From Escherichia coli (GTDB lineage: Bacteria; Pseudomonadota; Gammaproteobacteria; Enterobacterales; Enterobacteriaceae): a stretch of 64,000 bases of DNA. Both the position numbers and the translations under genes were made by a program. Below are positions 58,580-64,000 of the stretch, piece by piece (within the stretch, counting starts at the first letter, position 1; every line of letters begins with the position of its first letter). The DNA lies in NCBI RefSeq assembly GCF_003334335.1, contig NZ_QOWQ01000006.1; one strand, written 5' to 3'. Below the pieces are notes generated by a model. It saw only the letters and a list, made by a program, of their open reading frames with translations, did not search any database and had not been told where the DNA came from.

Positions 58580-59698
58580 ATGACTGGAGATAACACCCTC
58601 ATCCATTCTCACGGCATTAACCGTCGTGATTTCATGAAGCTTTGTGCAGCATTAGCCGCCACCATGGGGTTAAGTAGCAAAGCCGCTGCAGAGATGGCCG
58701 AATCGGTTACTAACCCGCAGCGTCCGCCAGTTATCTGGATTGGCGCGCAGGAGTGCACCGGTTGTACGGAATCTCTGCTTCGTGCAACGCATCCAACGGT
58801 AGAAAACCTCGTACTGGAGACTATCTCTCTGGAGTATCACGAAGTGCTTTCCGCCGCCTTCGGTCATCAGGTCGAAGAGAACAAACATAACGCTCTCGAG
58901 AAGTACAAAGGGCAGTATGTGTTAGTGGTGGATGGTTCCATCCCATTAAAAGATAACGGTATTTATTGCATGGTTGCCGGTGAGCCGATTGTGGATCACA
59001 TCCGCAAAGCGGCGGAAGGCGCAGCAGCCATTATCGCTATCGGTTCCTGCTCTGCGTGGGGCGGTGTTGCCGCAGCTGGAGTTAACCCAACTGGCGCAGT
59101 CAGCCTGCAAGAAGTTCTGCCAGGCAAAACCGTTATCAATATTCCGGGCTGCCCGCCGAACCCGCACAACTTCCTCGCGACCGTTGCGCACATCATCACT
59201 TACGGCAAACCGCCGAAACTGGATGACAAAAACCGTCCGACCTTCGCCTATGGCCGTCTGATTCACGAACACTGCGAACGTCGCCCGCACTTCGATGCTG
59301 GTCGTTTTGCCAAAGAGTTCGGTGATGAAGGCCACCGCGAAGGCTGGTGCCTGTACCACCTCGGCTGTAAAGGGCCAGAAACTTACGGCAACTGCTCAAC
59401 GCTGCAATTCTGCGATGTTGGCGGTGTGTGGCCGGTGGCGATTGGTCACCCGTGCTATGGCTGTAACGAAGAAGGTATCGGCTTCCATAAAGGCATCCAT
59501 CAGCTTGCCAACGTCGAAAATCAAACTCCGCGTTCACAGAAACCGGATGTTAACGCTAAAGAGGGCGGCAACGTCTCTGCAGGCGCTATTGGTTTGCTCG
59601 GCGGTGTGGTTGGGTTGGTTGCCGGTGTCAGCGTGATGGCGGTGCGTGAACTGGGTCGTCAGCAAAAGAAAGATAACGCTGACTCACGGGGAGAATAA
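58580..59698 (+). CDS. hybO: hydrogenase 2 small subunit
   Basis: 372 aa with Tat signal (RRDFMK) and [NiFe] hydrogenase small-subunit Cys motifs. Confidence 0.95.
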
Positions 59699-59700
59699 CC

Positions 59701-60687
59701 GTGAACAGACGTAATTTTATTAAAGCAGCCTCCTGCGGGGCATTGCTGACGGGCGCGCTGCCGTCTGTCAGTCATGCGGCTGCTGAAAACCGCCCGCCAA
59801 TTCCGGGATCGCTGGGGATGTTGTACGACTCGACCTTGTGCGTAGGCTGCCAGGCTTGCGTCACCAAGTGTCAGGATATCAATTTCCCTGAACGTAACCC
59901 GCAAGGGGAACAGACCTGGTCGAACAACGACAAACTGTCGCCGTATACCAATAACATCATTCAGGTGTGGACCAGCGGCACAGGGGTCAACAAAGACCAG
60001 GAGGAGAACGGCTACGCGTACATTAAGAAACAGTGTATGCACTGCGTCGATCCGAACTGTGTCTCTGTGTGCCCGGTCTCTGCACTGAAAAAAGATCCGA
60101 AAACCGGCATTGTCCATTACGACAAAGATGTGTGCACCGGCTGCCGTTACTGCATGGTCGCCTGTCCGTACAACGTGCCGAAGTACGACTACAACAACCC
60201 GTTTGGTGCGCTGCATAAGTGCGAGCTGTGCAACCAGAAAGGTGTGGAACGTCTCGATAAAGGCGGTCTACCTGGCTGCGTAGAAGTGTGCCCGGCGGGC
60301 GCGGTGATTTTCGGTACGCGTGAAGAGCTGATGGCGGAGGCGAAAAAACGTCTGGCGCTGAAGCCTGGCAGCGAATACCACTATCCGCGTCAGACGCTGA
60401 AATCTGGCGACACTTACCTGCATACGGTGCCGAAATATTATCCGCATCTGTACGGCGAGAAAGAGGGCGGCGGTACTCAGGTTCTGGTACTGACGGGTGT
60501 GCCTTATGAAAATCTCGACCTGCCGAAACTGGACGATCTTTCTACCGGTGCGCGTTCCGAAAATATTCAACACACCCTGTATAAAGGCATGATGCTACCA
60601 CTGGCTGTGCTGGCGGGCTTAACCGTGCTGGTTCGTCGCAACACCAAAAACGACCATCACGACGGAGGAGACGATCATGAGTCATGA
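59701..60687 (+). CDS. hybA: hydrogenase 2 ferredoxin-type 4Fe-4S subunit
   Basis: 328 aa with Tat signal (NRRNFIK) and multiple CxxCxxCxxxCP motifs; GTG start. Confidence 0.9.
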
Positions 60688-61855: not shown

Positions 61856-63555
61856 GCCAGAGAATTACTATTGATCCGGTAACCCGTATTGAGGGGCATT
61901 TACGCATCGATTGCGAAATCGAAAATGGCGTCGTTTCGAAAGCATGGGCTTCCGGTACCATGTGGCGCGGCATGGAAGAGATCGTGAAAAACCGCGATCC
62001 GCGCGATGCATGGATGATTGTGCAACGTATCTGTGGCGTATGTACTACCACTCACGCGCTGTCTTCCGTTCGTGCGGCAGAAAGTGCGCTGAATATCGAC
62101 GTTCCGGTTAACGCGCAATACATCCGTAACATCATTCTGGCTGCGCACACCACGCATGACCATATTGTTCATTTCTATCAGCTTTCGGCGCTGGACTGGG
62201 TGGACATCACTTCTGCACTGCAAGCTGACCCAACCAAAGCCTCCGAAATGCTGAAAGGCGTTTCGACCTGGCACCTGAACAGTCCGGAAGAGTTCACCAA
62301 AGTTCAGAACAAGATCAAAGATCTGGTTGCCAGCGGTCAGTTGGGTATTTTCGCTAATGGCTACTGGGGTCATCCGGCGATGAAACTGCCGCCGGAAGTG
62401 AACCTGATTGCGGTAGCGCACTACCTGCAAGCGTTGGAGTGCCAGCGTGACGCTAACCGCGTCGTGGCGCTGCTGGGCGGTAAAACGCCGCACATTCAGA
62501 ACCTGGCGGTAGGTGGTGTCGCGAACCCGATCAACCTCGACGGTTTGGGCGTGCTGAACCTTGAGCGCCTGATGTACATCAAGTCTTTCATCGACAAACT
62601 GAGCGACTTTGTTGAGCAGGTTTATAAGGTTGATACCGCAGTTATTGCCGCGTTCTACCCGGAATGGCTGACACGCGGTAAAGGTGCGGTGAACTACCTG
62701 AGCGTGCCGGAATTCCCGACCGACAGTAAAAACGGCAGCTTCCTGTTCCCGGGCGGCTACATTGAGAATGCGGATCTGTCCTCGTATCGTCCGATCACTT
62801 CTCATTCCGATGAATACCTGATCAAAGGCATTCAGGAAAGCGCGAAGCACTCCTGGTATAAAGACGAAGCGCCGCAGGCACCGTGGGAAGGCACCACCAT
62901 TCCGGCTTATGATGGTTGGTCTGACGACGGGAAATATTCCTGGGTGAAATCACCGACTTTCTACGGCAAAACGGTAGAAGTGGGGCCACTGGCTAATATG
63001 CTGGTGAAACTGGCGGCAGGTCGCGAATCTACCCAGAACAAACTGAATGAAATCGTTGCGATTTATCAGAAACTGACTGGCAACACGCTGGAAGTGGCAC
63101 AGCTGCACTCCACGCTGGGCCGTATTATTGGTCGTACCGTTCACTGCTGTGAATTGCAGGATATCCTGCAAAACCAATACAGTGCACTGATCACCAATAT
63201 CGGCAAAGGCGATCACACCACCTTTGTGAAGCCGAACATTCCGGCAACGGGTGAATTCAAAGGTGTTGGCTTCCTCGAAGCGCCGCGCGGTATGCTCTCT
63301 CACTGGATGGTTATTAAAGACGGTATCATCAGCAACTACCAGGCGGTTGTTCCATCAACCTGGAACTCTGGTCCGCGTAACTTCAATGATGACGTCGGTC
63401 CTTACGAGCAGTCGCTGGTGGGTACACCGGTTGCCGATCCGAATAAACCGCTGGAAGTGGTGCGTACCATTCACTCCTTTGACCCGTGCATGGCCTGTGC
63501 GGTACACGTAGTGGATGCTGACGGCAACGAAGTGGTTTCAGTGAAGGTTCTGTAA
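61852..63555 (+). CDS. hybC: hydrogenase 2 large subunit ([NiFe])
   Basis: 567 aa with N-terminal RxCGxC (RICGVCTTTH) and C-terminal DPCMAC...H motifs; overlaps hybB by 4 nt. Confidence 0.95.
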   Translation: MSQRITIDPVTRIEGHLRIDCEIENGVVSKAWASGTMWRGMEEIVKNRDPRDAWMIVQRICGVCTTTHALSSVRAAESALNIDVPVNAQYIRNIILAAHTTHDHIVHFYQLSALDWVDITSALQADPTKASEMLKGVSTWHLNSPEEFTKVQNKIKDLVASGQLGIFANGYWGHPAMKLPPEVNLIAVAHYLQALECQRDANRVVALLGGKTPHIQNLAVGGVANPINLDGLGVLNLERLMYIKSFIDKLSDFVEQVYKVDTAVIAAFYPEWLTRGKGAVNYLSVPEFPTDSKNGSFLFPGGYIENADLSSYRPITSHSDEYLIKGIQESAKHSWYKDEAPQAPWEGTTIPAYDGWSDDGKYSWVKSPTFYGKTVEVGPLANMLVKLAAGRESTQNKLNEIVAIYQKLTGNTLEVAQLHSTLGRIIGRTVHCCELQDILQNQYSALITNIGKGDHTTFVKPNIPATGEFKGVGFLEAPRGMLSHWMVIKDGIISNYQAVVPSTWNSGPRNFNDDVGPYEQSLVGTPVADPNKPLEVVRTIHSFDPCMACAVHVVDADGNEVVSVKVL

Positions 63556-64000
63556 TGCGTATTTTAGTCTTAGGGGTCGGCAATATTTTGCTGACCGATG
63601 AAGCCATCGGTGTGCGGATTGTCGAAGCGTTAGAGCAACGATACATTCTGCCGGATTATGTTGAGATCCTCGATGGCGGCACGGCGGGAATGGAGCTGCT
63701 TGGCGACATGGCAAATCGCGATCATTTGATTATTGCGGATGCCATTGTCTCGAAAAAGAACGCGCCGGGAACGATGATGATCCTGCGGGATGAAGAAGTT
63801 CCGGCGTTGTTTACCAACAAAATCTCTCCGCATCAGCTTGGCCTGGCCGACGTCTTGTCGGCCCTGCGCTTCACCGGCGAGTTTCCGAAAAAGCTGACCC
63901 TGGTCGGCGTGATCCCGGAATCGCTGGAGCCACACATCGGCTTAACGCCGACGGTTGAAGCAATGATTGAACCTGCGCTTGAGCAGGTTCTGGCTGCGCT
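63555..64000 (+). CDS. hybD: hydrogenase 2 maturation endopeptidase, 3'-truncated by window edge
   Basis: ATG at 63555 overlaps the hybC TAA by 1 nt; translation MRILVLGVGNILLTDEAIGVRIVEAL... runs open to the window end. Confidence 0.85.
   Translation, partial: MRILVLGVGNILLTDEAIGVRIVEALEQRYILPDYVEILDGGTAGMELLGDMANRDHLIIADAIVSKKNAPGTMMILRDEEVPALFTNKISPHQLGLADVLSALRFTGEFPKKLTLVGVIPESLEPHIGLTPTVEAMIEPALEQVLAA

Follow-up and report, generated by a model that had tools for sequence, protein, structure and literature searches.

Hydrogenase 2 operon of a K-12-like Escherichia coli: two Tat-exported, tail-anchored subunits encoded by tightly packed genes with conserved junctions

We analyzed a 64,000-nt stretch of Escherichia coli DNA (contig NZ_QOWQ01000006.1, assembly GCF_003334335.1; hereafter the window), the end of which is confirmed to carry the 5' two-thirds of hybOABCDEFG, the operon of respiratory [NiFe] hydrogenase 2. 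Five genes lie on the plus strand in the order hybO, hybA, hybB, hybC, and hybD. The first, hybO (58580–59698), runs from ATG to TAA and encodes the 372-residue precursor of the hydrogenase 2 small (Fe-S) subunit; hybA (59701–60687; GTG to TGA, 328 residues) encodes a four-cluster ferredoxin-type subunit; hybB (60677–61855; ATG to TGA, 392 residues) an integral membrane subunit of the NrfD/PsrC type; and hybC (61852–63555; ATG to TAA, 567 residues) the precursor of the [NiFe] large subunit, which has no signal peptide. The last, hybD (63555–64000), begins with ATG and encodes the maturation endopeptidase; the first 148 of its 164 codons are present and the gene runs off the window end. An earlier note made from the sequence alone had called these five genes, and every coordinate proved exact against the open reading frame (ORF) list, the raw sequence, and a junction script, with the identities borne out by NCBIfam models and the annotation of E. 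coli K-12 MG1655. Its further proposal that the operon continues past the window is also correct: hybE, hybF, and hybG come next in both E. coli strain 4/2-1 and MG1655, with overlaps of 8 nt each at hybD/hybE and hybE/hybF and a gap of 12 nt between hybF and hybG.

All five Hyb proteins of the window exceed the NCBIfam equivalog cut-offs for hydrogenase 2. HybO scores 834.7 bits against NF007779 (cut-off 659), HybA 596.9 bits against NF008134 (cut-off 263), HybB 625.1 bits against NF008133 (cut-off 450), HybC 1273.9 bits against NF007778 (cut-off 969), and the truncated HybD 290.9 bits against NF007777 (cut-off 190) over profile positions 1–147 of 164. HybO matches PDB chains 5xvb_S, 6ehq_S, and others, and HybC matches 6ehq_L and 6en9_L. 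The hydropathy profile of HybB has six strong peaks. This protein is called a "Ni/Fe-hydrogenase cytochrome b subunit" by the annotation pipeline PGAP and by NF008133, and a "membrane subunit" in the MG1655 annotation; given that its sole Pfam match is NrfD (PF03916, E 4.5e-18) and that no relative was found in the PDB by sequence, the cytochrome b name seems mistaken.

The window corresponds approximately to the reverse complement of MG1655 positions 3,140,841–3,204,840 at 99.97% DNA identity, with 15 single-nucleotide polymorphisms (SNPs) across ~62 kb. Two SNPs fall in the hyb genes, one in hybO and one in hybB, and both are synonymous, so that the Hyb protein sequences are identical to those of MG1655. 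The gene boundaries in the MG1655 annotation are those of the window, and the K-12 hydrogenase 2 operon (b2997–b2990) agrees with it exactly in gene order, gene lengths, start codons, and junctions; the locus is the reference hyb operon itself and no mere relative of it, already known and ordinary. The 6-kb hyb stretch is present in 5417 of 5426 complete E. coli genomes, with a reported identity of up to 100.0%, and the best genome match, to strain 4/2-1, has 1 mismatch in 6001 bases. The window strain differs from MG1655 in lacking IS2 in yqiG, whereas its hyb genes do not differ at the protein level. This element (IS2I), an insertion in the fimbrial usher gene yqiG of MG1655, is absent at window positions ~18746–18754; the strain is thus K-12-like but not MG1655 itself, and its yqiG may be intact.

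Both HybO and HybA begin with twin-arginine translocation (Tat) signals. The HybO signal (58580–58690, plus strand, residues 1–37) contains the motif N14-R-R-D-F-M-K, with R15-R16 encoded at 58622–58627 and cleavage after A35-A36-A37. The HybA signal (59701–59784, plus strand, approximately residues 1–28) contains N2-R-R-N-F-I-K, with R3-R4 encoded at 59707–59712 and A-A-A before E29; from this AxA motif, cleavage is predicted after A26–A28. A third signal (42172–42252, residues 1–27, motif S4-R-R-Q-F-I-Q) belongs to ftsP (sufI; 42172–43584, plus strand), which encodes a soluble periplasmic Tat substrate of 470 residues. When the first 50 residues of each protein were searched with TIGR01409 (TAT_signal_seq), a curated Tat-signal profile with a cut-off of 16.7 bits, HybO scored 30.1, HybA 23.7, and FtsP 21.8 bits. 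The claims of the earlier note that hybO and hybA carry twin-arginine signals and that ftsP at 42172 adds a third Tat substrate to the window are therefore upheld, given that the strict motif is present in each (SRRQFIQ in FtsP) and that the profile accepts the twin arginines of all three proteins as Tat signals. The three motifs agree with the Tat consensus S/T-R-R-x-F-L-K, which marks the boundary between n- and h-region. We also searched ORFs of 80 residues or more in six frames, trying each possible start, for [STNDG]RRxF[LIMV] together with an uncharged hydrophobic stretch, which returned HybO, HybA, and FtsP only (uncharged runs of 13–20 residues); the strict motif was found in none of 20 shuffled windows. 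A fourth candidate at 53115, found with a loose motif, lacks the strict consensus and was rejected; judged by its sequence, this stretch is probably an internal part of ExbB. The HybO chains in solved structures all begin at residue 38 or 39 and SufI chain 2uxt_A begins at residue 28, in agreement with 37- and 27-residue signals. Published work describes how HybO and HybA are exported and inserted into the membrane in a Tat-dependent manner, the export requiring TatABC and the arginine pair (PMC5902676, PMC10924467, PMC4273604).

The hyb genes are separated by very short gaps or overlap outright. A 2-nt gap lies between hybO and hybA, and the GTG start of hybA stands behind a GGGGAG located 8–13 nt upstream; neither this junction nor the GTG start figured in the earlier note, the overlaps of which (11, 4, and 1 nt) are exact by the junction script. 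The hybA and hybB genes overlap out of frame by the 11 nt (ATGAGTCATGA), with a GGAGGAG upstream of hybB, hybB and hybC by the 4 nt (ATGA), and hybC and hybD by the single nucleotide (TAATG). The Shine–Dalgarno sequence of each downstream start (hybA, hybB, hybC, and hybD) is located inside the preceding gene, another detail absent from the earlier note. We rejected an alternative hybB start that would give a 4-nt ATGA overlap at 60684, as it is in the wrong frame and opens an ORF of only 15 codons; the NF008133 alignment, which begins at HybB residue 3, speaks for 60677 as the start. Tight packing is not confined to hyb: among the 34 pairs of same-strand neighbors that MG1655 has annotated in this stretch, 9 overlap or lie at most 2 nt apart, and four of these 9 are hyb pairs.

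We compared these features across hyb loci located with a degenerate DNA pattern for one exact HybA motif, CMHCVDPNC, in contigs from one genome per species. At least 120 loci in 43 genus-level groups were found, mostly from Enterobacterales, Pasteurellales, Aeromonadales, Vibrionales, and Chromatiales, with a few from Desulfobulbales, SAR324, and other metagenome-assembled genomes; the junction and arginine counts given here are among the matches listed. The E. coli proteins were mapped onto stop-to-stop ORFs, and the start codon nearest to the aligned N-terminus was taken as the start. The gene order O-A-B-C(-D) is found in the 120 loci listed. The twin arginines are kept in all 80 HybO sequences and in 115 of 116 HybA sequences. 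The hybO/hybA gap is 1–3 nt in 92 of 110 loci, and the hybA start was assigned as GTG in 76 of the 110. In 98 of 100 loci, hybA and hybB overlap by 8, 11, 14, or 17 nt, always behind a GGAG-type Shine–Dalgarno sequence. At hybB/hybC, overlaps of 4 nt (47 of 84 loci), 23 nt (17), and 1 nt (9) are accompanied by gaps of 1–114 nt in the other loci, and hybB and hybC are 14–65 nt apart in Vibrio, Reinekea, and some Chromatiaceae (such as Lamprocystis). The 1-nt hybC/hybD overlap recurs in 47 of 53 loci.

The lone HybA without the arginine pair comes from an insect symbiont, Candidatus Symbiopectobacterium sp. "North America" (locus L079), which has RH instead (MNRHNFFK). The hybC ORF of this locus also looks shortened, at 538 codons, and the sister genome (L111) keeps the pair in HybA; the loss is probably a case of gene decay in a symbiont. 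Two Chromatiaceae HybO sequences with SRREPAL were discarded as exceptions, as the real motif, SRRRFIEF, lies further downstream.

From the overlaps, the location of the Shine–Dalgarno sequences inside upstream genes, and the conservation of the junctions across genera, we infer, as the earlier note did, that translation of the hyb genes is most likely coupled. Ribosomes finishing hybO, hybA, hybB, or hybC would restart at the adjoining or overlapping start codon, and restarting at the next gene would help to keep the subunits in proportion. We are cautious in this interpretation, as the conservation of the junctions fits coupling but is no proof of it and several observations weigh on the other side. 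Every downstream gene has a Shine–Dalgarno sequence of its own, so that each could be initiated independently. The 1- and 4-nt overlaps have counterparts at qseB/qseC and yqiA/cpdA in the same window, and such overlaps are the commonest junctions in bacterial operons. The separation of hybB and hybC by 14–65 nt in some lineages indicates that their overlap is not obligatory. Given that start codons were assigned by nearness to the E. coli N-terminus, the junction geometry in the comparison is biased towards E. coli. Finally, we found no direct experiment on hyb coupling in the searchable literature.

These observations bear on a different explanation, which we consider possible but doubtful: the overlaps would reflect compact packing with no functional coupling, each cistron starting independently from its own Shine–Dalgarno sequence, and the junctions would be conserved through mutational bias and the constraint of overlapping coding sequences. 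The Shine–Dalgarno sequences upstream of hybA, hybB, hybC, and hybD are good ones, as this explanation would have it; such junctions are common in unrelated operons of the same window, and the gaps in Vibrio, Reinekea, and Lamprocystis indicate that the operon works without the hybB/hybC overlap. However, the hybA/hybB overlap varies by whole codons yet survives in nearly every locus listed, from Enterobacterales to Desulfobulbales, a persistence that exceeds what neutral packing would suggest. In addition, the subunits form a complex of roughly fixed ratio (PMC5902676), a setting in which coupling is usual. We retain coupling as the most likely reading. A bolder version of it is one that we put forward tentatively and that may well be wrong: the near-abutment of hybO and the mostly GTG start of hybA, together with the hybA/hybB overlap behind its strong GGAGG, would be no incidental packing but an obligatory termination–reinitiation device by which the HybO:HybA:HybB ratio is fixed.

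The presence of ftsP in the same window as hyb raises the question of whether genes for Tat cargo are functionally clustered, a proposition we regard as very improbable. With roughly 27 Tat substrates in E. coli (PMC4273604), three in approximately 57 genes exceed the ~0.4 expected if the substrates were spread evenly. However, hybO and hybA share one operon and constitute a single locus, so that the window contains only two independent Tat loci, which is unremarkable, and ftsP lies 15 kb away, behind the unrelated ygiQ, yqhD, metC, exbBD, and others, and acts in cell division. The proximity of ftsP is a coincidence of map position with no functional link. SufI serves as a standard soluble Tat reporter (PMC10924467), and the FtsP sequence has no C-terminal hydropathy peak. 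One PDB entry, 9r91, has as chain G a 478-residue FtsP chain covering residues 1–470, signal included, in contrast to the older SufI structures that start at residue 28; this chain may be the precursor bound to the export machinery.

That the arginine pairs are chance dipeptides in ordinary Sec signals, or no export signals at all, has a negligible probability: apart from moderately hydrophobic h-regions ending in AxA, which Sec signals have too, we found no support for this view, and it is countered by TIGR01409 scores above the cut-off, the absence of the strict motif from shuffled sequence, the near invariance of the arginines across 43 genera, the Fe-S and NiFe cofactor cargo that must fold before export, and the published Tat-dependent export of HybO and HybA, along with the use of SufI as a standard Tat substrate (PMC5902676, PMC10924467, PMC4273604).

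HybO and HybA also share a second feature, a C-terminal transmembrane tail anchor. In HybO the anchor (59573–59644, plus strand) comprises approximately residues 332–355, with a 19-residue Kyte–Doolittle peak of 2.31 starting at residue 337 (337–355); in HybA (60586–60633, plus strand) it comprises approximately residues 296–311, with a peak of 1.82 starting at residue 293 (293–311). These C-tails have been reported (PMC5902676, PMC10924467), and both proteins are named as members of the tail-anchored Tat substrates (PMC10924467). HybC has no hydrophobic peak and no match to the Tat model; it has been described as lacking a signal and as being co-exported with HybO by a hitchhiker mechanism, with HybE as a binding partner of the HybO signal peptide (PMC4273604). 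HybB has been proposed as the site of quinone binding (PMC5902676). The C-terminus of HybC contains the DPCxxCxxH motif as DPCMACAVH, and the 15 residues that follow His552 (VVDADGNEVVSVKVL; 63508–63552, plus strand) form the extension removed by the HybD protease. The PDB holds HybC chains of 552 residues (6ehq_L, 5xvc_L) alongside 567-residue precursor sequences. The mechanism of HybD cleavage belongs to the established knowledge of [NiFe] hydrogenase maturation.

Taken together with the published work, these features give the following picture. HybO and HybA are each synthesized with a twin-arginine signal at the N-terminus and a transmembrane tail at the C-terminus. Following cofactor insertion in the cytoplasm, HybO carries the signal-less HybC across the membrane through the Tat translocase by the hitchhiker route, and HybA leaves independently by means of its own signal; the tails then anchor both proteins beside the NrfD-type HybB, which links the enzyme to the quinone pool, and HybD trims 15 residues from the C-terminus of HybC. 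We are highly confident of this explanation taken as a whole (hyb identity, Tat export, C-tail anchoring, HybD trimming, and likely translational coupling), and nothing among the evidence gathered argues against the hyb identity or the Tat signals.

Hydrogenase 1 of E. coli (hyaABCDEF) resembles the hyb system: its small subunit bears a Tat signal and a C-tail, its large subunit has no signal and is exported as a passenger, and an endopeptidase is dedicated to it. HybO and HybC match hydrogenase 1 chains at E values of ~1e-79 and 5e-152. Unlike hyb, hydrogenase 1 has a haem-b membrane subunit, HyaC, and neither a HybA-type ferredoxin nor an NrfD-type HybB; lacking the ferredoxin, its operon has one Tat signal compared with two in hyb. 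The HybA/HybB pair can instead be likened to NrfC/NrfD, PsrB/PsrC, HmcB/HmcC, and FdnH, in which a four-cluster ferredoxin is combined with a quinone-interacting membrane protein. HybA matches the HmcB, NrfC, FdnH, and DmsB models, all below their equivalog cut-offs, and HybB matches HmcC. NrfC-type ferredoxins likewise carry Tat signals. In contrast to the NrfC/NrfD-type modules, the hyb module is attached to a [NiFe] hydrogenase, and whereas FdnH has a C-tail only and travels with the Tat-signal-bearing FdnG (PMC10924467), HybA combines a C-tail with a Tat signal.

The 188-nt, A+T-rich intergenic region between yghW and hybO (58392–58579, plus strand) must hold the hyb promoter and 5' untranslated region. 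A promoter scan of 57900–58700 returned one weak sigma-70-like site at 58381–58408, with a site count not above that of shuffled sequences, and did not locate the hyb promoter; an Rfam search of 57900–64000 at E values up to 1 gave no match, hence no known RNA element in the leader or the junctions. IscR is reported to repress hyb (PMC5902676). Using an IscR type-2 consensus, we found a type-2-like motif with 1 mismatch on the minus strand at 58479–58503, 77–101 nt upstream of the hybO ATG. The same scan gave 12 motifs across the window against 8.7 expected, which is not above chance, and this site is accordingly only a lead that we do not claim. Further upstream, a perfect palindrome at 58066–58091 (11+11 bp with a 4-nt center, TCGCTATATAT-TGTC-ATATATAGCGA) stops 13 nt short of the yghW start codon at 58104 and was flagged on the minus strand by a terminator scan; it resembles an operator, or a hairpin in the RNA at the ribosome-binding site of yghW. 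The neighboring yghX, which is dienelactone-hydrolase-like, is split by a frameshift into ORFs at 57150–57575 and 57575–57985 and is annotated as a pseudogene in MG1655 and strain 4/2-1.

Elsewhere in the window, two adjacent copies of ~357 nt (10903–11258 and 11278–11635) share 90.8% identity; when their coordinates are converted, they correspond to the tandem sibD/ibsD and sibE/ibsE toxin–antitoxin RNA loci of MG1655.

Knowledge of the hyb operon, of the HybO and HybA Tat signals, of HybC hitchhiking, and of the tail anchors dates from the late 1990s and early 2000s, and these features appear in every E. coli annotation. The Tat signals and the tight gene packing are thus confirmed as real and already known, and they carry little weight as a discovery; the reading of the raw sequence was nevertheless accurate to the base. 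What our analysis adds is the comparative conservation of the twin arginines and of the tight junctions across about 43 genera. The conserved junctions provide a modest hint that the subunit ratios of an exported complex are set at translation and, if the reinitiation device exists, hyb would be a clean natural model of how such a Tat-exported membrane complex has its stoichiometry set.

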